Both the position numbers and the translations under genes were made by a program. 64,000 bases of DNA from Dictyostelium discoideum (taxonomy: Eukaryota), in contig CM000152.2 of the NCBI GenBank assembly GCA_000004695.1, positions 6,272,001 to 6,336,000 of the forward strand, read 5' to 3'. A model generated the notes under the pieces. It made no database searches. It saw only the letters and a list, made by a program, of their open reading frames with translations, and was not told the origin of the DNA. Numbering within the stretch: the first letter of the stretch is position 1; each line of letters starts with the position of its first letter. Below are positions 51,600-62,356 of the stretch, one piece after another.

Positions 51600-53290
51600 T
51601 TATTGTAATTCTTTTAATTCATGAAATTGAAAAATGAGGGATTCAACAAATTTATTTATTGTTTGAATTATTTCCGGAGGTTGATTTTCTGGATTTTTAC
51701 ATTCTAATTCCATTTCATGATATTCACGGTGCAGAGAATATGAATTTAGTATTAAATCAAACAAACCACCTAATATAAATAATTTAGTATATGAGTGGGA
51801 AGAGCTACCTCTAATTGTAGCATAGTAACGTTTGTCTGTGATGTCTACAAGGTTGTACCAGAAAATATATTGATCATGAATCATTTGGGAACGATTCTGA
51901 TGAGTACCAATAACTTTTATTTTTAAATCTTGTAGTTCCTTCTTGGAATAATTTTTGTTTTTATCATATATCCCACCATCTTGAGTGCTATCCAATGGTT
52001 CTAATATTTTTTTAATTTTGTCGTTTTTGTTAAGATTGTTGTTTTCTTTTTTGTATTTATCATTATATATTTGAGCTATGTGTTCAGCTGATAATTTCTT
52101 CAACATTTGTTCGTTCCAAAAAGGACCACATGGTGGTTTTACAAAGTTAGTTTTATATTTGTCATTTAATATTTCCAATGTTGTCCCATGCAATGTCTCA
52201 CCAACAAAAATTAGTTCTAATTCTTTTTTTGAAAAACGAAATAAATTTCCAATAGTTGCAAATTGTTCTATATTTAGATTATTATTAATTTCCACATATG
52301 GGTTTGAATATCTTGAATATAGATTTGTTGCAATGCAATTGATATGACCAGCGGTATTTTTGGTATACTCGTACAATAGTCCTGTGCTTTCATCATAAAA
52401 AAGGAATGTTTTATGTATGGTTAATAAAGGTTTGACGAATATTTTATTTCTTGAGGAACAGTCACGCCACTCTTCCTTGTTGAGGATAAAATACGACATT
52501 TCAATTCATCTAAACATTCTTTATTATTTACTAATGCAAAGGCACTATCGCAACATACGATTAAGTTATTCCTTGGATCCTCCCAATTATATTTTGAATG
52601 TAAATTATCCAAAAGGGTTTTTAATGAATTGAAAGGAGATTGACAGTTTTCTGGTGTTCTTGGACCATAACTAATTACATATGGACAATTACTAATATTC
52701 AATTTGGTTGTTAGACTATATGCTTCAATTCCGACTGAATGGGGTTTGCTATCATTATTAATCAATATATGATCTTTCCCATAATATGCGTATATTGTTT
52801 CATCACAATTGAGAACGTTACCAATATTAATATATTTCAATGCACTGTTCATAAATATTTCACAATACTCTTCAAATCTATGACTTTTCATATCCAAAAC
52901 ATTATGTACTGCTGAATATCTATTGTGATCCATCATTTTTAAATTAATTCAGGTGGTATCTTATCATTGTTTTTATTTGAATAAATATTTTTTAAATAAT
53001 CAGTTATAAATTTCCAGAATGTAATATCGGTTAAATCATTTAATCTTGAAATATCCTTCCCTTTATCTAATTTTTTCTCCCTCTCATGTCTAAGATTTGT
53101 ATTAATTAATGAAATTAAAAATTTTGATAAATCTTCATTTAATAACAATTTAAAAAAAAATAATTCATTATAAACCTGACCATTATTTTCACTTTCAATC
53201 TTTTCTCTATTTATTGATGATTTTCTTGGTGTAGTGTTTTCAACAATTTCGCTATAATTAATTGGTCATACTTTATTATTAAAAATAGAA
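51600..53290 (-). pseudogene. piggyBac-type (DDE_Tnp_1_7) transposase-derived gene, interrupted by at least two frameshifts and lacking an in-frame ATG at the 5' end. It is a decayed or domesticated transposase.
   Basis: Three consecutive minus-strand ORFs in different frames together span a piggyBac transposase. LNCDETIYAYYGKDHILINNDSKPHSVGIEAYSL corresponds to T. ni piggyBac LTIDEQLLGFRGRCPFRMYIPNKPSKYGIKILMM. IVCCDSAFAL...LKCRILSSTRKSGVTVP corresponds to ITCDNWFTSIPLAKNLL...IVGTVRSNKREIP. FLFYDESTGLLYEYTKNTAGHIN corresponds to ESTGKPQMVMYYNQTKGGVD. The frame shifts at ~52936-52941 and within 52421-52499. A K/N-rich insertion is present. Confidence 0.65.
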
Positions 53291-53569
53291 TGGTTAAATG
53301 TTCAATAAAAAAAAAAAAAAAAAAAAAATACACACACTTTCATTTTAATATTTGTTTTCGAAAATAAATATCTGAATTTTTATTAATTTTTTTTTTTTTT
53401 TTTAATTTTTTAAGGTGTAAAAAAATGTGAAAAATTTTTTTATTTTTTGTCAAAAAGTTTTAAATTTTTTAAAATAAAATGAAATGAAATAAAATAAAAT
53501 AAAAAAAGTTTTAAATTAATAAAAAAAATACTTATAATATATTTATTATTTAATTTTATAAAATTGAGT

Positions 53570-56516
53570 CTAACTTCTAGATGACCTTGAGGATGTTACC
53601 GTGGTTGATGGTTTTTGGAATTTTCTTTCTCTTTCTCTAATTTTTTCTTTTTCTCTTTCAATTTCTTTTTGTTTTTCAGCTTCTTTTTCTTTTTGTTTAA
53701 TTACTTTTTCATTTTCCCGATTCATTCTTTCAGATTTACTCATCATAGATTGTGATGGTGTTGATGAGGAAGAGGAAGAAGAAGGGGATACATTTGAAGA
53801 TTTTGAAGAGGATCTACCACTTTGTTCTCTTTCATTTCTTGTTGAGGATTTATCTGAATCTCTTTCATTATTCGATGATGTTGAAGATGATGTTGTTGAG
53901 TCTTTTGAATCTTCTTTCTTTCTTGATGATGATGATGATGATGATGGTTCACTTCTTTGTGATTCATCTTTTTTATTTGAATCTCTAGTTCTAGTGTTTT
54001 CATTTTTATCTGATCTATCTCTACTATTGGTAGAGGTTGAGGATGAGTCTCTGTCTCTGTTATCAGAGGTTTCTTTTCTGGCATTTGATGAGGTATCTCT
54101 ATCTCTATCTCTATCTCTGTCCCTGTTGCCACTACCACTTGATGAGTATGAATGATCAGAATCTTTTCTACCACCACTACTTGATTGATTACTATCTGAT
54201 GCTCTATCCTTACTTTCTCGTTTACTTCCACTAGTTGTTGAAGAATAATCCCTATTTTCTCTATCTCTATTTGAGTCGCTTTTACTTGATGGATAAGAGT
54301 CATTCTCTCTTTTACCACTACCACTTGAGGATGATGTTTCTCTATCTCTTGTTGAATCTCTATCGTAATGATCTCTAGAACTTCTATTATCTGATCTATC
54401 ATCTCTTTCTTTATCTCTTGTACTTTCGCTTCTTCTGTCGGATGATCTATCTCTATCTCTTTCTCTATCCCTATCTCTGTCTCTATCTCTTCTGCTGCTG
54501 CTGCTACTGTCATGGTCATCCCTATCTCTGTCTCTTCTACTGCTGCTGCTGCTATCATGATCATCCCTATCTCTATCTCTTCTGCTGCTACTGTTACTGT
54601 TGCTATCATGATCATCCCTATCTCTTCGGCTGCTACCACTGTTACTGCTGCTACCACTGTCATGATCATCTCTATCTCTTCTGTTGCTGCTACCACTATC
54701 ATGATCATCTCTATCTCTTCTGTTGCTGCTGTTGTTACCACTATCATGATCATCTCTATCTCTTCTGCTGCTACCACTATCATGGTCATCTCTATCTCTA
54801 TCCCTGTCTCTTCTATCATAGTCATCTCTATCTCTATCTCTGTCTCTTCTATTATCGTAGTCATCTCTTTCCCTTCTTTCTCTATCTCTTTCTCTATCTC
54901 TTTCTCTTTCTCTTTCATCGACATCGTCATCTCTTTTTCTCTTTTCACCATGATAATCACCACCGTATCTGTCAGGTGAACTACCACCACTTGACCATTC
55001 ATCTCTTTTTGATGAGGAATAAGGTCTACCACCACCACTACCACTGCCGCCGCTGCCGACACTACTACCACTACCGCCGCTACCATTTGGGGGTGGTGGA
55101 CCACCTTGATAAAAGTAAGGAGGAGGTGGACCGCCAATCATATTTGGAGGTGGTGCACCCCCTCTACCCATATAACCTCCTCTACCACTTGACATTGTAG
55201 CTCCATATGGAGGAGGTGGGAAAGGTGAACCTCTACCACCTCGACCCATATAACCTCCTCTCATTGGTGGAGAATAAAACTCTGGTTGCATTCCAATGGG
55301 TGGTGGTGGACCACCTCTACCACCTCTCATTGAAGCACCTACTGATCTCTTACCACCTCTACCACCTCTTGAATATGGATCAGCATAACCATATGGTGGT
55401 TGTTGTTGCTGTTGTTGTGGTGGTTGTTGATATGGATAAGGCATACCACCAAAATGTGGATGTGAACCACCACCACCACTGCCATTAACACCACCTCCAT
55501 TACCACCATGTTGTGAATTTGACAATGATGATGATGATAAAGATGATTGATGATGAATATTATTTGCAATATTACCACTATTTGTATTATTATTATTATT
55601 ATTATTATGAGAGTTTGAAGAAGAATTTAAATGTTGTTGATTCGATTGATTTGATTGACCTAAACTAATATTCTTAATGGTAGTAAGAGCATTATGATAA
55701 TTTTGTTGAGAAAGTAAACGAATTGTCATCTCTTTACCATTGATTTCTTTTTTCTCAGTTTTTGATTTTGCAAGTTGAGCTTGTTCAATATGTTCAAACT
55801 CTACAAATGCATAACCTTTTGATTTACCATTATTTTCATTTTCAAAGATCTTTAATGTAACAATCTTTCCAAACTCTAAAAATACATTTTCAAGTTGTTG
55901 GTCAGTTGTCCACCATTCTAATCCACTAATATACAATGCTGGTGATAAATCAGTAGTATCAGTAATTGTCGTTGTTGTTGTTGTTGATGATGATTCTCCT
56001 GATACTGTAGATGATGATCCATTATTTGTTCTATTATTGTTATTATTGTTATTGTTATTTGATGTTGAATTTTGATCATTTTCATCATATGTTCCTAATA
56101 TATTCTTTATATATATATAAAATGTAATTCAAAAAAATTAGAAAATTAATAATTTTAAAATTAAATAAAATAAAAATAAATTATGTAGTTACATCATCAT
56201 CATTTTCATCATAAGATTTTTCATCTTCAATTAATCTTATACTGTGAGTATTTTCTGTATCATCATCCATATTACTAGCACTTCTTCTTGATTTATTATT
56301 ATTATTATCATCTTCATCTTCATCATCATCTCTACGTGATGATCCATAATTACTATCACTATCTTCATGATTATTCGATTCACTACGTGTATTCATAGTT
56401 TCATCATTTTCATTTCTGTTTCTATATTTATTATCTTCTATTTCATCTTCTCCAAGTTCATCTTCTGTATGTTTCTTTTCATCTTTAAAGTCTCCATATA
56501 TATCATAATCTTCCAT
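53570..56516 (-). CDS. Cleavage and polyadenylation specificity factor subunit 6 (CFIm68/CPSF6) homolog. Minus-strand exons are 56516..56193 and 56104..53570.
   Basis: The RRM ALYISGLEWWTTDQQLENVFLEFGKIVTLKIFENENNGKSKGYAFVEFEH matches human CPSF6 (LYIGNLTWWTTDEDL...IKFFENRANGQSKGFALV). It is followed by a Gly/Pro/RGG region and a long RD/RS/RE-dipeptide C-terminus, as in CFIm68. The track ORF starts at a TTG. The true ATG is at 56516 (MEDYDIYGDF, compare human DHIDIYADVGEEF). A donor GAT|gtaact is at 56193/92 and an acceptor tataaag| at 56105, phase 0. Confidence 0.75.
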
Positions 56517-56939
56517 TATTCTATTTTATTTTATTTTCTTTATAAAAAATATATTATTATTATTGTTATTATTATATTTGATCGGTAATATTTGTTTATA
56601 AAGAAATGAAAAAAAAAAAAAATGAAAAAAAAAAAAAAAAATGAAAAAAAAAAAAAAAACAATTTAATTACACAATTTTAATTTGTCCCTTCAATTTCAA
56701 AAATAAATTAAAAAAAAAAAAAAAATTAAAAAAAAATTAAAAAAATGATTATGGTTTGTTAAAATTTTTTTATTTTTTTTTAAAATTTATTAATATTATA
56801 TTCACTAAAATGGAAATTTGTAGAGACCTAGAAGATTTTAAAAAAAGATTTTTTGTACCAAATTATTTATTGATAATAATTTCTCAATTCAAAGATGATG
56901 ACTTTACCAACAGCAGTTGAACTAGCTTGTTAATTATTA

Positions 56940-56970
<31 letters not shown>

Positions 56971-57063
56971 CCACAGTAAATAAAACTAATTAATACCAAT
57001 TGAATTATTAATTTTATCTTAATCCAGTTTATACTCTTAATTTTTTTTTATTTTTTTGTTTTT

Positions 57064-57099
<36 letters not shown>

Positions 57100-57216
57100 C
57101 GCTTTTTTGTGTTCATTTTTATTTTATTCCTTTTTTATTTTATATTACTTTATTTTTTTAAAAACATTTAATCTAGGTTTTTATTGTACAAACAATAATC
57201 TGAAACATTCATTTAA

Positions 57217-57945
57217 ATGTTTAGGATAGCTAAAAGTTTAAGAAGCAGACTTAGAACTTTTGAAACTATAAAAAACTATGATAAACAAAAAAGAAATGAA
57301 AAAAATCAAGAAAAATTTATTAATACCGCAGGAGTAACACGAGAAAACCTTGAATTAAAAATTAAAGAATCAGAAAATAGACATATACTTGAGAAATTTA
57401 TTACAGTTATTCCCAGCAACTATTCACCAATAATATTAAATAAAGAACAAAAACTAAAAATAACCGATAATAAGTACAAAAGATTACCTCGAGCACAACG
57501 AGATCAATTAAAATTACAATTACAAGAACAATCCACTTCATTCAGTTACATAAATATAGATGAAATTCAACAACAAAATGATAAAGATGATAAAGATGAT
57601 AACCAAATAGTAACATTAGTTGTTGAAGATAAAGAATATTTTGTTAAATTTAATAACTTTGCATTTTTAGCAGATGTTATCAAATCAGATGTTTTATATT
57701 TATGTGGTTTGGTTAAAGATTTACCAACAAATCTTAATAGAGATAGTTCATATTTACGAGATACATCACTATTAAAACGTTTTTATGCATTTGGTAAAAA
57801 CAAAAAAAGAGTACCCAGTACAGCATGTGCCAAATGTTTGTTTTTTAATTATGATAAAATAATATTGGAATCTTCAAAGAATATAAAAGAAAAAAAATCA
57901 AACCCCAAAAATGCTTCAAAAAAAAAACAAAATTCAAGAAATTAA
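57217..57945 (+). CDS. Hypothetical K/N-rich protein with an N-terminal presequence-like region, possibly mitochondrial. Single exon.
   Basis: The ATG at 57217 was verified. MFRIAKSLRSRLRTF is amphipathic and basic. No recognisable domain is present. Confidence 0.45.
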   Translation: MFRIAKSLRSRLRTFETIKNYDKQKRNEKNQEKFINTAGVTRENLELKIKESENRHILEKFITVIPSNYSPIILNKEQKLKITDNKYKRLPRAQRDQLKLQLQEQSTSFSYINIDEIQQQNDKDDKDDNQIVTLVVEDKEYFVKFNNFAFLADVIKSDVLYLCGLVKDLPTNLNRDSSYLRDTSLLKRFYAFGKNKKRVPSTACAKCLFFNYDKIILESSKNIKEKKSNPKNASKKKQNSRN

Positions 57946-58479
57946 TATTTTCTACCATAAAATAGCAATTCCTAAATAAAAAAAATAAATAAATAAAAAA
58001 ACTTAACTTTTTAAGTTAAAAAAAAAACATTCAAGTTGTGTTTAAAAAAAAAAAAAAAAAAAAAATATTTAACCTCAACCAAAAATAATAATAATAATAA
58101 CCAAATACAAAAATTCTAAATAACTTCTCAAACTAAAATAAAAAAATAATAATAACCAACAAAATAATAAATAAATTTGTATATATATATATTTTATTTT
58201 ATTTTGTTTTATTTTTTTTTATTTAAAAAATTAAATATCCCACAATAACCAGTTTTCATATTTAATTATTTTAATTTTTTTTTAATAATCTTTTATTTCT
58301 TTTTATTTTTTTTTTTATCATTTTCTATTATTATTTTTCATCTGCCACTCTTTTCATTTTTAACAAAATTTCAGAAAATTTTCCAATATCCTTTATCAAT
58401 AGACAAGTTTTAAAATATTTCCCAAGAATTTAAAATTTATTATTATTTTTTTTTTTTTTTTTTAATTTATAGGATTAAA

Positions 58480-58824
58480 ATGGAAGAAAAAAAAGAAATC
58501 GTTTATATCTATGAACAATCCACTGGAATCCTTTATGATGGAGAAGGACATGAAATTTGTAGAGGATATTCTGGTAAAGGTGAACACAAGAATCAACCAA
58601 GTTCTGAGGGTTTAGAAAATTATGGTCCAATACCCAGAGGTACATATTTATTGAAAAAACCCAAAGGTAAGGTAGTGATTGATTTAATACCACTCCAAAA
58701 ACTTATAAATGGTAGACATTCATTCCAAATTCATGGAGACAGTATAGAAAATCCAGGTACTGCATCCCAAGGTTGTATTATACTAGGAAAAGATGTTAGA
58801 TTGAAAATTTCTGAACAACCTTAA
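58480..58824 (+). CDS. Small (114 aa) protein with a bacterial-type DUF2778/Tlde1-like L,D-transpeptidase (YkuD) fold. Single exon.
   Basis: The ATG at 58480 was verified. YSGKGEHKNQPSSEGLENYGPIPRGTYLL matches the DUF2778 pattern (G.G...N.....KGPLP.G.W). HSFQIHGDSIENPGTASQGCIIL matches the catalytic His ... S.GC(I/V) motif of YkuD-type L,D-transpeptidases and Tlde1 effectors (FSIHGG...SAGCIDL). Confidence 0.6.
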   Translation: MEEKKEIVYIYEQSTGILYDGEGHEICRGYSGKGEHKNQPSSEGLENYGPIPRGTYLLKKPKGKVVIDLIPLQKLINGRHSFQIHGDSIENPGTASQGCIILGKDVRLKISEQP

Positions 58825-58859
58825 ACTAAAAAGTTAATTGTTGTTTACTTTTATAAACC

Positions 58860-59587
58860 AAATAACATAACAACAGATAGCACCCTTCCAACTCCATCAC
58901 CAATTTCAACTCCACATCCAACCTCTATTCCACATCCATTCTTTTTTCCTTCACCAATCTTAACTCCACCTTCAACCTCAACTCCATCATCAACCACAAC
59001 TGCATCATCAACTTCAACTCCATCATCAACCTCAACCCCCTCATCAACCTCAAGTCTAAAGAATTTCAAATATGCATCATTACTTAAACAACAATCTAAT
59101 AACTTAACAACATCGTCACATGACTATACACAACCACAAACAAAACAAATTCCAACTTCAAATCCCACCTATTACCCTGAACTACCATTTGCATTAAAAT
59201 CACCAGAACAACAAATGTTAGATATTGAATTAATGAAGTATAAATCTTTTTCTCCTAAACCACCATTGAATATGAATAATATAACACCATCGTCATCGTT
59301 GTCATCATCGACTTTTATTAAAACAGAATTACAAAGTAAACCAAATTTAAGTTCATATTATTCTTCCCCCCTCTTCTTCTTCTTTGTCTTCTTTTTCTTC
59401 TTTTTCCTCTTCTTCTTCTGATATCAATAGTATAAGATATTCAAAATATTTTCAAACATCCAATTCATCCTTAGAGAATGTATCCTGTGGTTCATCTTTT
59501 AAAAGTTTTGATACCAGAACTCCAAATCTCTCTCTATTTAGTGATCCTAAAAATTCCTCCATTGGTTTCTCTTATAAATTTGGTTAA
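58860..59587 (+). other. S/T/P-rich, mucin-like open frame with an apparent +1/-1 shift at a C/T homopolymer run around 59375. It may be a low-complexity coding region or pseudogene. No upstream start codon was identified.
   Basis: The frame LPTPSPISTPHPTSIPHP...PSSTSTPSSTSTPSSTSS...SPKPPLNMNNITPSSSLSSS stays open for about 170 codons. It then continues in another frame (SSSSDINSIRYSKYFQTSNSSLENVSCGSSF...) after the run ccccctcttcttcttc. Confidence 0.25.
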
Positions 59588-59684
59588 TAATTTTTTCATC
59601 CATCATTTTAGTAGTCCCAGGTAAAAAAAATGTCAAAAAATAAAACCTTCAGAATTAATTCATTCTATTGCAAAGTAGAAAAAT

Positions 59685-59726
<42 letters not shown>

Positions 59727-59836
59727 CTTCCTAGGATAATAGTTTTAAATAAAATGATTAGATATTTTAAATTCTTTTAGTTCTTTAAATTTTTGTTATT
59801 TATTTATTTTATTTTTATTTTATTTTATTTTATTTT

Positions 59837-60697
59837 TTAATTAATTAATTTTGGTTCAATTTTAACATAAATTAATTTTGAAGGCTCAGATTTTATTGGT
59901 CTTTTTAAATGGGTAATTAATATTTTTGTATGTTGTGGATTAAATTTATCAAATGATAATTCTTTAATGATTAAAGTTTGATCAGATAATAATGAAGCTT
60001 TAAGTTTACTATTTTCCACACCAATATATTCAATTGTAACTTCTGAATTATAGCTATAAAATATTAATGTTGAATTATTTACAAAATCTGATGGATTTAA
60101 ATCAATGATTTTTGAGATTTTATTATTCTCATCTTCATCATCATCAATATCATCAATATCATCAAATGAAATTACTTCTACCTTATGATTGATTTCACTA
60201 TCTTTACTAATTACACTAAAATCATAAGTTTCTTCAACTTCATTTAATTGAGAAGTTGCTATCAATGGTTGTTGAAAACAAATTGGTGAATTTGGTGAAA
60301 CTGAACAATTATTATCAATGAAATTATTTTTAACTGCTAATAGTGGTTGTTGTTGTTGTTGTTTATCATTATTTTCATTTGGTAAGAATACTGAATCAGT
60401 TTCATAACCACCATTAAAATTATAAGGTTTAAAATAATCTAAATCAATTGATTCATTTGGTTTTTGTCTATGGAATAATGATAATCTATTTCCTTTTAAA
60501 ATTAATAAACTTCTATTGTAACCATCAAATGTTGAAAATGGTCCTGCTGTACCAACTACTGCACGACTAATACGATAAGTGAATGAATCATTTAATGTAC
60601 TTCCAATTGGTTCAATATGAATTTGTGTTGATTTACCTTTTCCATTTCTCCAAACCATATGATCATAATCACATTTTTCTTTAATTTTCCAATACAT
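59837..60697 (-). CDS. HutD/Ves-family (cupin-like) protein. The N-terminal ~130 aa is the HutD domain. The C-terminal half is acidic and low-complexity. Single exon.
   Basis: The ATG at 60697 was verified. DYDHMVWRNGKGKSTQIHIEP...FTYRISRAVVGTAGPFSTFDGYNRSLLILKGNRLSLF follows the HutD consensus (DY..MPW.NGGG.T.EI...P...F.WR.S.A.V...GPFS.F.G.DR.L..L.G.G..L). Confidence 0.65.
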   Translation of the reverse strand: MYWKIKEKCDYDHMVWRNGKGKSTQIHIEPIGSTLNDSFTYRISRAVVGTAGPFSTFDGYNRSLLILKGNRLSLFHRQKPNESIDLDYFKPYNFNGGYETDSVFLPNENNDKQQQQQPLLAVKNNFIDNNCSVSPNSPICFQQPLIATSQLNEVEETYDFSVISKDSEINHKVEVISFDDIDDIDDDEDENNKISKIIDLNPSDFVNNSTLIFYSYNSEVTIEYIGVENSKLKASLLSDQTLIIKELSFDKFNPQHTKILITHLKRPIKSEPSKLIYVKIEPKLIN

Positions 60698-61060
60698 TTT
60701 TATTTTAAAATTATTATTATTATAATTATTATATATTATATAAATAAATTATAATTTAAATATTATTTGAATTTTTTTTTTTTTTTTTTTTTTTTTTATA
60801 TTAATGAAATTTTAAAATGAAATTTTCAATTTTTAATTACAGCGCAATTGTTAAAAGAAAAAAAAAAATAAAAAAAAAATAAAAAAAAAATTAAAAATTA
60901 AAATAAAAAAAAAAAATAAAAATTAAAATAAAAAAAAAAAAAAATCAAGAGAAGATTTTTTTTTTTTTTTTTTTTTATTTTACTTTTCTTTAAATATATA
61001 AATATAAGTATATATACATATATATATATATAAATATAAAATTTAAAAAAAAAAAAAAAA

Positions 61061-62356
61061 ATGAATTCAATTCAATTTCCAACACATGAAAAAATTATTG
61101 AAGCAGTTGATAAATTACAAAATGAAGCAATTGAAAAATTAAAACAAATGGTATCATTCGATTCTGTATTAGGTAATGAAAGAGATGTTCAATTATATGT
61201 TGAAGAAGTTTTCAAATCATTAGATTTAAAGGTTGATAGATTTGAAATTGATTTAGAAAAGATTAAACATTTACCAGGTTTTTCACCAGTCAATTGGTCT
61301 TATAAAGGAAAAGAGAATGTAATTGGTATTCATGAACCAGCACCAACTCAACATGCATCAAAACCAGAATCAGAGAGAAAATCATTAATTTTCAATGGTC
61401 ATGTTGATGTTGTACCAACAGGAAGAGATGCACTTTGGACTCAAAATCCATTCTCACCATATGTTAAGGATGGTCGTCTCTATGGTAGAGGTAGTGGTGA
61501 TATGAAAGCAGGTATCATTGCATTTATCATTGCCTATAAGGCAATTAAAGAATTGGGTTTTACTCCAGCCGCAAAAGTATTACTTCAAACTGTAGTCGAA
61601 GAGGAATGCACTGGTAATGGAACATTGGCTTGTTTAGAGAGAGGTTACCGTGCTGATGCTGCCATCATTCCTGAACCATTTCCAGAGATTATCACTGCTC
61701 AAGTTGGTTTAGTTTGGTGTAAAGTTAATGTACGTGGTAAACCAGCACACACATTGGAGATGAGTAAAGGTATTAATGCAATCGATGGTGCTATGTATCT
61801 TGTTGGTGAACTTAGAAAATTAGAGGCTGAATGGAACACTGTAAAACATGAAGCATTCTCTGACAAGTTTGACCATCCATTAAATTTCAATCTTGGTATG
61901 ATCAGTGGTGGTGAATGGACCTCTTCAGTACCATGTGAATGTTCATTTGATCTTCGTGCAGGTTTTTATCCAGGTACACCATTGGAAAAAGTTCGTAAAA
62001 CAATCATTGATACTATTGACCGTGCCGCTAAAGAAAAGAATTTACCATACACAATCGAATGGAATGGTTTCCAAGCTGAAGGTGTCACTCATAGTGCCTC
62101 TGGTGATATGATGAAACAATTGGGCGCCACTTATAAATCTGCACTTGGTACTGATGCCATTTATTCACCTGTACTTTGTACCACCGATAGTAGATTCTTT
62201 GAACTTTATTATAATATTCCTGCAACTTGTCTTGGTCCAGAATCAAAAGCAATTCACGGTATTGATGAAAGTGTCTCATTAGAAAGTTTAAGAGATATTA
62301 CAAGAGTTTTAGCTTGTTTTATTTCTGATTGGTGTGGTCTTCAACCACTTCATTAA
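61061..62356 (+). CDS. Peptidase M20 family metallohydrolase: an ArgE/DapE-type acetylornithine deacetylase or succinyl-diaminopimelate desuccinylase-like protein. Single exon, 431 aa.
   Basis: The ATG at 61061 was verified. NGHVDVVPTG, the metal-binding GRGSGDMKAG, and VEEECTGNGT (a catalytic Glu-Glu pair) match M20. The dimerisation-domain region and the C-terminal HGIDESVSLESL are also M20-like. Confidence 0.8.
   Translation: MNSIQFPTHEKIIEAVDKLQNEAIEKLKQMVSFDSVLGNERDVQLYVEEVFKSLDLKVDRFEIDLEKIKHLPGFSPVNWSYKGKENVIGIHEPAPTQHASKPESERKSLIFNGHVDVVPTGRDALWTQNPFSPYVKDGRLYGRGSGDMKAGIIAFIIAYKAIKELGFTPAAKVLLQTVVEEECTGNGTLACLERGYRADAAIIPEPFPEIITAQVGLVWCKVNVRGKPAHTLEMSKGINAIDGAMYLVGELRKLEAEWNTVKHEAFSDKFDHPLNFNLGMISGGEWTSSVPCECSFDLRAGFYPGTPLEKVRKTIIDTIDRAAKEKNLPYTIEWNGFQAEGVTHSASGDMMKQLGATYKSALGTDAIYSPVLCTTDSRFFELYYNIPATCLGPESKAIHGIDESVSLESLRDITRVLACFISDWCGLQPLH

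Follow-up and report, generated by a model that had tools for sequence, protein, structure and literature searches.

Three bacterial-type genes side by side in Dictyostelium discoideum: a truncated Tlde1-like peptidase gene next to a conserved HutD-M20 pair, with probably separate histories

Introduction

Eukaryotes that feed on bacteria or fight them may gain new immunity or digestion genes when bacterial cell-wall-cleaving enzymes are transferred to them, a known route for which documentation is sparse. The dae genes, which follow this route, are conserved, secreted and functional. They are reportedly Tae amidases of the T6SS (type VI secretion system) that were transferred to animals and other eukaryotes, as a 2015 paper by Chou et al. 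in Nature is said to describe. Tlde1-family enzymes target the stem peptides of peptidoglycan (PMC9638812), and the catalytic motif of the T6SS effector Tlde1a is H-x(n)-(S/T)-H-G-C-h (PMC9638812). Pseudomonas HutD, in turn, has been implicated in limiting formylglutamate accumulation (PMC8034625). The present study concerns a stretch of 64,000 nucleotides of Dictyostelium discoideum DNA (contig CM000152.2, positions 6,272,001 to 6,336,000), the whole of which is called the window here, and in which a Tlde1-like gene, a HutD gene and a gene for an M20 deacylase follow one another within 4 kb. An initial annotation had proposed that these genes might be one old island, acquired by horizontal transfer, and that their products could act together on bacterial cell-wall or peptide material. 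Our analysis indicates that they are probably chance neighbours with three separate histories and that no island was transferred.

The classic HGT (horizontal gene transfer) list for D. discoideum (Eichinger et al. 2005), in the part quoted in a 2026 D. giganteum preprint, names ThyX, TerD, OsmC, PP_kinase, peptidase M15/S13, Endotoxin_N, several DUFs, CnaB, Dyp_peroxidase and IucA/IucC. Tlde1/DUF2778, HutD and this particular M20 do not stand in the quoted part of that list. Besides, our literature search found no paper naming DUF2778 or HutD together with Dictyostelium. Apparently, a phage-type L,D-peptidase gene in D. discoideum has so far gone unreported and unannotated, and it seems to be caught here in the course of its loss.

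Results

The window has a GC content of about 22%, which is Dictyostelium-like. Exactly as annotated initially, three open reading frames (ORFs) lie at 58480-58824 (+), 59837-60697 (-) and 61061-62356 (+) and encode products of 114, 286 and 431 amino acids. Each is a single unbroken, intronless frame in the window genome. All three clear the curated Pfam cut-offs of their families (Tlde1_dom, HutD and M20), and the observation itself, three ORFs with these domains, is confirmed. The description of the families as mainly prokaryote-type also holds, since all three are of bacterial or phage kinds, and so does that of the codon usage as amoeba-like: GC at third codon positions (GC3) is 7-17% across the three genes, as in Dictyostelium. 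Inspection of the N-termini revealed no hydrophobic N-terminus or signal sequence in any of the three proteins, and none of them matched a PADLOC defence model.

The 114-residue Tlde1-like ORF (58480-58824, +) matches Tlde1_dom (PF10908) with 51.5 bits against a gathering threshold of 30.1 (E=1.7e-13). Its best family match is phrog_24118 (99.6 bits, E=2.6e-28), in which ORF residues 9-111 align to profile positions 2-110 of 121. The modelled fold is YkuD-type and is predicted to superpose on Tlde1a; phage proteins in BFVD match the model with TM scores of 0.79-0.89. The predicted catalytic residues, His85 (codon 58732-58734) and Cys99 (codon 58774-58776), are invariant in 82 Tlde1 family members and lie in the motif H85...S96-Q97-G98-C99. 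Gln97 replaces the second His of the motif (H129 in the SHGC of Tlde1a), at a position that is variable in the phage-type subfamily (Q, E, K, H, R, S, D, T or L). Furthermore, the blocks GYSG, GPIPRG, HGDS and ASxGCI are common to the ORF and the phage family.

A word-indexed homolog search, with six matches each for the Tlde1-like ORF and HutD, proved too insensitive, and an exhaustive phmmer search over 1.84 billion representatives was used for the Tlde1-like ORF. It returned 1433 relatives at E<=1e-3. Among 5.8 billion clusters and these 1.84 billion representatives, the only close relative was a 130-residue ORF from another D. discoideum strain, and identity to any relative from outside D. 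discoideum was at most 55%. All the close ones among these outside relatives come from phages or bacteria or are metagenomic sequences without a label, a pattern that fits a transfer. Full-length homologs with 43-47% identity, all annotated as hypothetical, are encoded by 58 cultured phage genomes: jumbo phages of Erwinia and Dickeya, one Yersinia phage and one Citromicrobium phage. The exact 114-residue product had no record in a sequence look-up, and a scan of IMG/VR with the single ORF found no relative.

One metagenomic homolog (locus L001) has a prophage setting, as it follows tail-spike-like and Ig-domain structural genes, precedes an integrase and is flanked by small hydrophobic ORFs. 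The neighbourhood of the Erwinia jumbo-phage homolog consists of hypothetical proteins throughout. Other relatives are fused to PG_binding_1 (peptidoglycan-binding), to RHS repeats or, weakly, to a pesticin/lysozyme domain. From this context and these fusions, the phage family may be supposed to act in lysis or as a virion lysin. Neither HutD nor M20 was present in the phage and prophage loci examined. In the window, the neighbours of the Tlde1-like ORF are HutD and an uncharacterised 242-residue ORF, and neither a T6SS context nor an adjacent Tldi1-type immunity gene was found.

Some further relatives deserve mention in their own right. The best-scoring relatives from outside Dictyostelium (P0133, P0134, P0136, P0141 and P0189), one of them from a metagenome-assembled genome of Caulobacteraceae, have either two tandem Tlde1-type domains or DUF5675 together with Tlde1; the tandem architecture was not met in the Salmonella effector literature examined. 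Two other Tlde1-domain proteins look eukaryotic. One (P0145), from a TARA ocean metagenome contig (L007), has a low-complexity tail rich in S, N and Y; the other (P0151), whose exact sequence is not on record, starts with the myristoylation-like MGNKSS and is rich in S and P in its N-terminal region. A Tlde1 domain may thus exist in other protists too.

The Tlde1-like frame in the window is closed by a TAA at 58822-58824 (+) that lies within the domain, on a conserved Asp/Glu column of the family alignment and four residues ahead of the terminal L-x-V-V strand. The second D. discoideum strain has GAA (Glu) at this codon. The 114-residue product is without the terminal L (89%) and V (98%) columns of the family. 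In a read-through alignment, the codons after the TAA (T-K-K-L-I-V-V) restore the missing strand, with KKLIVV encoded at 58828-58845.

Beyond the stop, the frame stays open for another 198 codons (58825-59421, +), in what appears to be the former 3' part of the gene. Such a length has a probability of about 4e-5 for the composition, and one in 5000 shuffles was as long. The tract is rich in S, T and P, with 54% GC at second codon positions and 17% GC3, and the DNA from 58825 to 59836 has 28% GC as against 5-14% in true intergenic DNA. The tail shows an 18-nucleotide periodicity, and 58886-59071 is an imperfect six-codon tandem repeat of TCA-ACT-CCA-TCA-TCA-ACC and its variants (families D4 and D11). 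Repeats of this 18-nucleotide type are typical of mucin-like low-complexity coding sequence in Dictyostelium. A run of six C residues at 59366-59371 is followed in the +1 frame by a stretch reading SSSSLSSF...GFSYKFG and a stop, at 59372-59587 (+), which on translations and strain alignment is a possible continuation of the old tail. The C run is one residue shorter in the other strain, where the two tail frames would be rejoined; apparently, the window allele also has a +1 change in this run, near the end of the tail. The simplest reconstruction would be an ancestral gene with a complete Tlde1 domain and a long Dictyostelium-style tail.

In the independent assembly of the second strain, the Tlde1-like ORF and its flanks recur with 99% identity. 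This second allele has a lesion of its own, a 2-bp insertion five codons past the Glu, which gives the 130-residue ORF. It also carries P50L and P92L at conserved prolines, C27S and two 1-bp deletions in the tail. Both alleles stop within about 15 codons of the domain boundary. Two ways of rescuing the window allele were considered and rejected. The sole GT...AG options for an intron that splices out the TAA would remove the helix with the invariant Arg107, and there is no such annotated protein. Likewise, the 500 bp upstream, where an exon with a signal peptide might be sought, have 13% GC and no coding-like frame.

The syntenic loci of four other dictyostelids (L003-L006), D. citrinum, D. 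firmibasis, D. purpureum (L005) and P. violaceum (L006), were compared with the window. A first blastn run was flooded by low-complexity matches and was repeated with filtering. The alignment with D. citrinum ends at 59797 and restarts at 56802, with 300 bp there as against 3 kb here. In D. firmibasis, the ortholog of the 242-residue ORF is 183 bp from HutD, a tight junction without remnant. These breakpoints indicate a D. discoideum-specific segment of about 1.9 kb (approximately 57946-59797) that contains the Tlde1-like ORF with its tail. On either side of it are the 3' ends of HutD and of the 242-residue ORF (57217-57945). A tblastn search with the Tlde1-like ORF found nothing in the four syntenic loci. 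A search for flanking repeats round the segment gave only poly-A/T and the coding 18-nucleotide periodicity, with no target-site duplication and no transposon ends.

The 242-residue ORF itself (57217-57945, +) is rich in Lys and Asn and has no Pfam domain. Its D. firmibasis ortholog beside HutD has 155 residues, and the ORF is missing in D. citrinum. This difference suggests that the 3' flank of HutD is prone to deletion and insertion.

The M20 gene (61061-62356, +) encodes an M20A metallo-deacylase of the ArgE/DapE family (PRK06837-type), with Pfam matches to Peptidase_M20 (113 bits) and M20_dimer (59 bits). The NCBIfam model NF005306, 'ArgE/DapE family deacylase', is matched with 493.6 bits against a cut-off of 376, residues 8-429 covering profile positions 7-426 of 427. 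It does not count as an equivalog of ArgE or DapE, for which its scores are far under the cut-offs (for example 119 vs 298 and 120 vs 362). The metal-ligand motifs are intact (H114, D147, E181/E182, E205 and H399), and the match to PDB 3pfo (267 bits) aligns them; we take the metal-binding roles of these residues to be those in the established DapE and ArgE structures.

D. discoideum ACTFIR_000960 matches the M20 protein with 100% identity. Its orthologs in D. purpureum, P. violaceum, Tieghemostelium and Synstelium share 74-84% identity with it, and homologs with 47-56% occur in Ceratiomyxa, Balamuthia and Rhodelphis, the last of these a non-amoebozoan (Archaeplastida). Homologs in Azospirillum, Caenispirillum, Roseospira and other Alphaproteobacteria have about 50-55% identity. 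The coding sequence in Balamuthia is split by introns into five blocks and has Yip1 and an F-box/RhoGEF gene as neighbours; thus, the gene is genuinely nuclear. In neighbour-joining trees, all labelled eukaryotic M20 sequences formed one clade together with six unlabelled short metagenomic contigs. With gammaproteobacterial and SAR324 homologs as the root, this clade was nested among alphaproteobacteria-like sequences, and in 99 of 100 bootstraps no bacterial sequence fell inside it. The expectation that the D. discoideum protein would sit in a bacterial clade apart from eukaryotes was therefore not borne out.

In bacteria, the M20 gene has apparent LysR-type regulators and peptide or amino-acid ABC transporters as neighbours, as read from translations rather than from Pfam matches. 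This bacterial context is catabolic, not cell-wall. A related observation comes from a more distant, gammaproteobacterial group of M20 loci (L013-L029; Saccharospirillum, Oceanospirillum, Nitrincola and SAR324). There the M20 homolog belongs to a conserved cluster in which, on reading the translations by eye, one can make out genes for two CoA-transferase subunits, a class-III aminotransferase, a thiolase and an amino-acid ABC transporter. The cluster suggests a dedicated catabolic pathway for some N-acyl or amino compound.

The HutD gene (59837-60697, -) encodes a HutD/Ves-family cupin whose residues 10-104 match Pfam HutD (PF05962) with 80.4 bits against a cut-off of 25, on profile positions 3-93 of 181. 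Matches in the PDB (1yll, E=5e-8; 5fcc, E=7e-7) likewise cover residues 5-104 only. The protein consists of a recognisable N-terminal barrel, a variable low-complexity insert and a divergent C-terminal half that is conserved among dictyostelids. This half is predicted to be beta-rich and might form a second cupin barrel; the AlphaFold2 (AF2) model of HutD is unreliable (pLDDT 43). Orthologs are present in D. citrinum (89%), D. firmibasis (84%), D. purpureum (54%) and P. violaceum (39%), and in two more dictyostelid sequences. An intron with in-frame stops lies at an identical position, after WRIS[Q/S], in D. purpureum (L005, 10139-10199) and P. violaceum (L006, about 10139-10228) and is missing in D. 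discoideum, D. citrinum and D. firmibasis, which points to lineage-specific intron loss. No histidine-utilisation (hut) genes were seen near HutD in the dictyostelid loci examined.

In each of the five dictyostelid species compared (D. discoideum, D. citrinum, D. firmibasis, D. purpureum and P. violaceum), HutD and M20 face each other head-to-head, with the same neighbours throughout, namely zf-HIT, a pyridoxal-phosphate decarboxylase and TCTP. Consecutive gene numbers suggest the same arrangement in a dictyostelid from EukProt. The spacer between the two genes (60698-61060) measures 363 bp with 5% GC and is presumably a bidirectional promoter. A profile built from dictyostelid HutD proteins, which recovers all dictyostelid copies, was run on 24 bacterial M20 loci and found a HutD within 8 kb in none of them (0/24), nor one beside the Balamuthia M20. 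Hence, the pairing is not bacterial. By analogy with Pseudomonas HutD, a functional link to the adjacent N-acyl-amino-acid deacylase would be an attractive idea; on a more speculative reading, the pair might form a eukaryotic module that disposes of N-formyl or N-acyl glutamate from histidine breakdown.

Elsewhere in the window, a second segment of about 2 kb (51447-53446) is without counterpart in the syntenic locus of D. citrinum. It contains two adjacent or overlapping ORFs on the minus strand (51600-52499 and 52421-52936; 299 and 171 residues) without a Pfam match and could be an insertion specific to the lineage or a mobile element that has degraded. The local GC peak is due to a 788-residue ORF with about 39% GC (53570-55936, -), in which an apparent N-terminal RNA-binding region precedes very long Arg/Asp/Ser-rich repeats. 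This gene appears ordinary, with orthologs of 861-863 residues in D. citrinum and D. firmibasis.

Discussion

The three neighbours differ in their phyletic ranges. M20 is found across Amoebozoa and beyond, HutD in dictyostelids and the Tlde1-like ORF in D. discoideum only, and with three separate histories the reading as a single transferred island fails. That reading drew on three mainly prokaryotic or phage domains inside 4 kb, on their ameliorated codon usage and on their substrates, as Tlde1-family enzymes act on stem peptides (PMC9638812) and M20 enzymes on acyl-amino acids. However, the genes are not linked in the 24 bacterial M20 loci or in Balamuthia, their orthologs have introns (HutD in D. 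purpureum and P. violaceum, M20 in Balamuthia), and bacterial M20 genes are found among catabolic and transport genes rather than cell-wall genes. Moreover, the Tlde1-like gene is truncated in the window and frameshifted in the other strain, and no signal peptide was found in the three proteins, which speaks against their acting together on cell-wall material in the phagosome. We therefore regard an island with a joint cell-wall or peptide-processing function as very improbable. Had all three genes been vertically inherited, with their closest homologs in eukaryotes, the initial proposal would have been untenable from the outset; this is the situation of M20, whereas HutD shows it within dictyostelids only and the Tlde1-like ORF not at all. 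Similarly, synteny in D. purpureum and P. violaceum extends to the HutD-M20 pair and not to the Tlde1-like ORF. In other words, the adjacency of bacterial-type domains is no evidence of an island, as the ages of neighbours here range from species-specific to pre-Amoebozoa.

On the explanation that we prefer, three separate origins would have been brought together by chance. M20, of the PRK06837 ArgE/DapE subfamily, would be a cytosolic di-metal deacylase for N-acyl-amino acids or peptides. To judge from its sequence relationships, this bacterial-type enzyme probably entered eukaryotes once, long ago and before Amoebozoa diversified, from an alphaproteobacterium-like source (the mitochondrial ancestor or an early transfer), and would have been inherited vertically through Amoebozoa since. 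HutD would be a small-ligand-binding cupin found across dictyostelids and ancestrally intron-bearing, and its pairing with M20 would have arisen inside eukaryotes, not from a bacterial operon. The Tlde1-like ORF belongs to a family of YkuD-fold cysteine peptidases of about 120 residues from phages and bacterial toxins; in bacteria, such enzymes cleave or swap the D-amino acid at the end of peptidoglycan stem peptides. Its gene would once have coded for the complete domain with a long S/T/P-rich tail attached, of which a GAA-to-TAA change cost the window strain the last strand and the tail; in the other strain, a 2-bp insertion would have had much the same effect.

For M20, and possibly HutD, the alternative is that no transfer into amoebae took place at all and that these are vertical eukaryotic genes that date back to the mitochondrial ancestor or to the last common ancestor of eukaryotes and were lost in most lineages. 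The single eukaryotic M20 clade takes in Rhodelphis, the nearest labelled bacterial sequences are alphaproteobacterial and the Balamuthia gene has introns, all of which would fit such an origin. Against this, the sampling is patchy, with a handful of eukaryotic lineages among the top 120 matches, neighbour-joining trees cannot separate an endosymbiotic from a later transfer or from eukaryote-to-eukaryote spread, and HutD is sampled within dictyostelids only. We consider a vertical origin a serious contender whose chances fall somewhat short of even.

For the Tlde1-like gene, the TAA removes the last conserved strand together with the tail. Hence, the gene is probably a decaying relic of an acquisition from a phage or bacterium, rather than a working antibacterial enzyme. 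The opposite view, in which the ORF is a domesticated antibacterial or digestive enzyme whose 114- and 130-residue short forms are functional and have become phage-like through the loss of the tail, can point to the catalytic His and Cys and to the stand-alone phage homologs of likewise about 120 residues. The stops of both alleles, so close to the domain boundary, would suit it as well, and the 130-residue allele retains a hydrophobic L-T-L-L-L that might substitute for the last strand. However, the window allele is devoid of the terminal L and V columns, the other allele has Leu at two conserved prolines, and there is neither a signal peptide for delivery to the phagosome or the cell exterior, nor an ortholog in the syntenic loci of the four related species, nor an annotated protein in public collections. 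A working enzyme thus seems unlikely. That D. discoideum captured a Tlde1-family L,D-peptidase of phage or toxin type and still uses its strain-polymorphic 114- and 130-residue products as antibacterial or digestive enzymes appears, in our judgement, slightly less probable again. If true, a eukaryote would here, as far as we could find, have domesticated a YkuD-fold peptidoglycan effector for the first time, in parallel to the dae amidases.

Several points weigh against the explanation that we prefer. The AF2 model of the 114-residue protein is confident, and 35 of the 37 strongly conserved columns spanned by the ORF are kept, with the catalytic core intact; such a protein could still fold and act. 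The ratio of nonsynonymous to synonymous polymorphism (pN/pS) between the two alleles is 0.40, from five substitutions, which are too few to judge constraint. The words 'unannotated' and 'single-copy', as applied to this gene, rest on protein databases, not on whole-genome searches. Furthermore, the M20 trees are neighbour-joining only, with most of the presumed bacterial sequences unlabelled, and all HutD matches in the word-indexed search are dictyostelid, its range being established within that group. The GC3 of 15.7% in the Tlde1-like ORF implies a long stay in an AT-rich genome and is awkward for an insertion found purely in D. discoideum. An older acquisition that was followed by two losses, or a donor that was itself AT-rich, would be just as possible; relocation from elsewhere in the genome is a possible third way to square ameliorated codons with a one-species range.

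In its fuller form, an older acquisition means that the gene with its tail was already present when D. discoideum, D. citrinum and D. firmibasis still shared an ancestor, or before that, and was then deleted in the relatives. The fully Dictyostelium-like GC3 and an identity of no more than 55% to any known relative would follow from it, and there would have been time for the S/T/P Dictyostelium-style tail to evolve. The gap in D. citrinum (56802-59797) took the neighbouring 242-residue ORF too, so deletions do happen at this site. Nevertheless, at least two independent losses are needed as against one gain, the 183-bp junction in D. firmibasis bears no remnant, and AT-rich members of the Tlde1 family exist (P0152) that could have served as donors. 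We hold this history to be quite conceivable, if on balance doubtful. Contamination or an assembly artefact from a bacterium or phage, which the otherwise bacterial or phage membership of the family might bring to mind, has a nearly negligible chance. The codon usage and the position of the ORF within poly-A/T Dictyostelium DNA both contradict it, as does its recurrence with its flanks in the assembly of another strain. The initial annotation had likewise argued against contamination, in agreement with the ordinary eukaryotic gene neighbours and the HutD/M20 synteny in four other dictyostelids.

Two different, apparently disabling alleles in two strains make the Tlde1-like gene useful for gauging how often captures fail. 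Besides, the conserved HutD-M20 pair offers a cheap lead towards the function of HutD proteins. The dictyostelid HutD proteins resemble those of Pseudomonas (1yll, PA5104; 5fcc and 5v00, P. fluorescens) in the N-terminal cupin, where only the first ~100 residues align, and differ in the low-complexity insert, the divergent C-terminal half and the want of a hut operon. The M20 protein is alike over its full length to the PRK06837/NF005306 deacylases (3pfo, annotated as a putative acetylornithine deacetylase), with about 50-55% identity to alphaproteobacterial members. In contrast to those, it is encoded by a eukaryotic nuclear gene within a eukaryote-only clade.

The closest described enzyme to the Tlde1-like ORF is Tlde1a, the T6SS effector of Salmonella Typhimurium (PDB 7UMA), to which it is 21% identical, with 114 residues (about 125 when restored) as against 171; neither phmmer nor the family profile gave a sequence-level match to 7UMA. 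The amoeba ORF further differs from Tlde1a in having Gln97 in place of H129, no T6SS, no adjacent immunity gene and a eukaryotic host, and in being cut before the last strand. The phage proteins of phrog_24118 are nearer, being single-domain proteins of about 120 residues with 43-47% identity over the whole length. They end in the L-x-V-V strand and have no tail, whereas the amoeba gene had an S/T/P-rich extension of about 200 codons or longer, which is now cut. As far as it is quoted, the D. discoideum HGT list also contains bacterial-type domains, including the cell-wall-degrading peptidases M15 and S13. The dae genes encode NlpC/P60-type amidases instead of a YkuD-fold L,D-peptidase, and the amoeba gene, in contrast to them, is lineage-restricted, has no signal peptide and bears disabling lesions. 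What it shares with the dae genes is a peptidoglycan-cleaving domain of interbacterial warfare in a eukaryotic nuclear genome.

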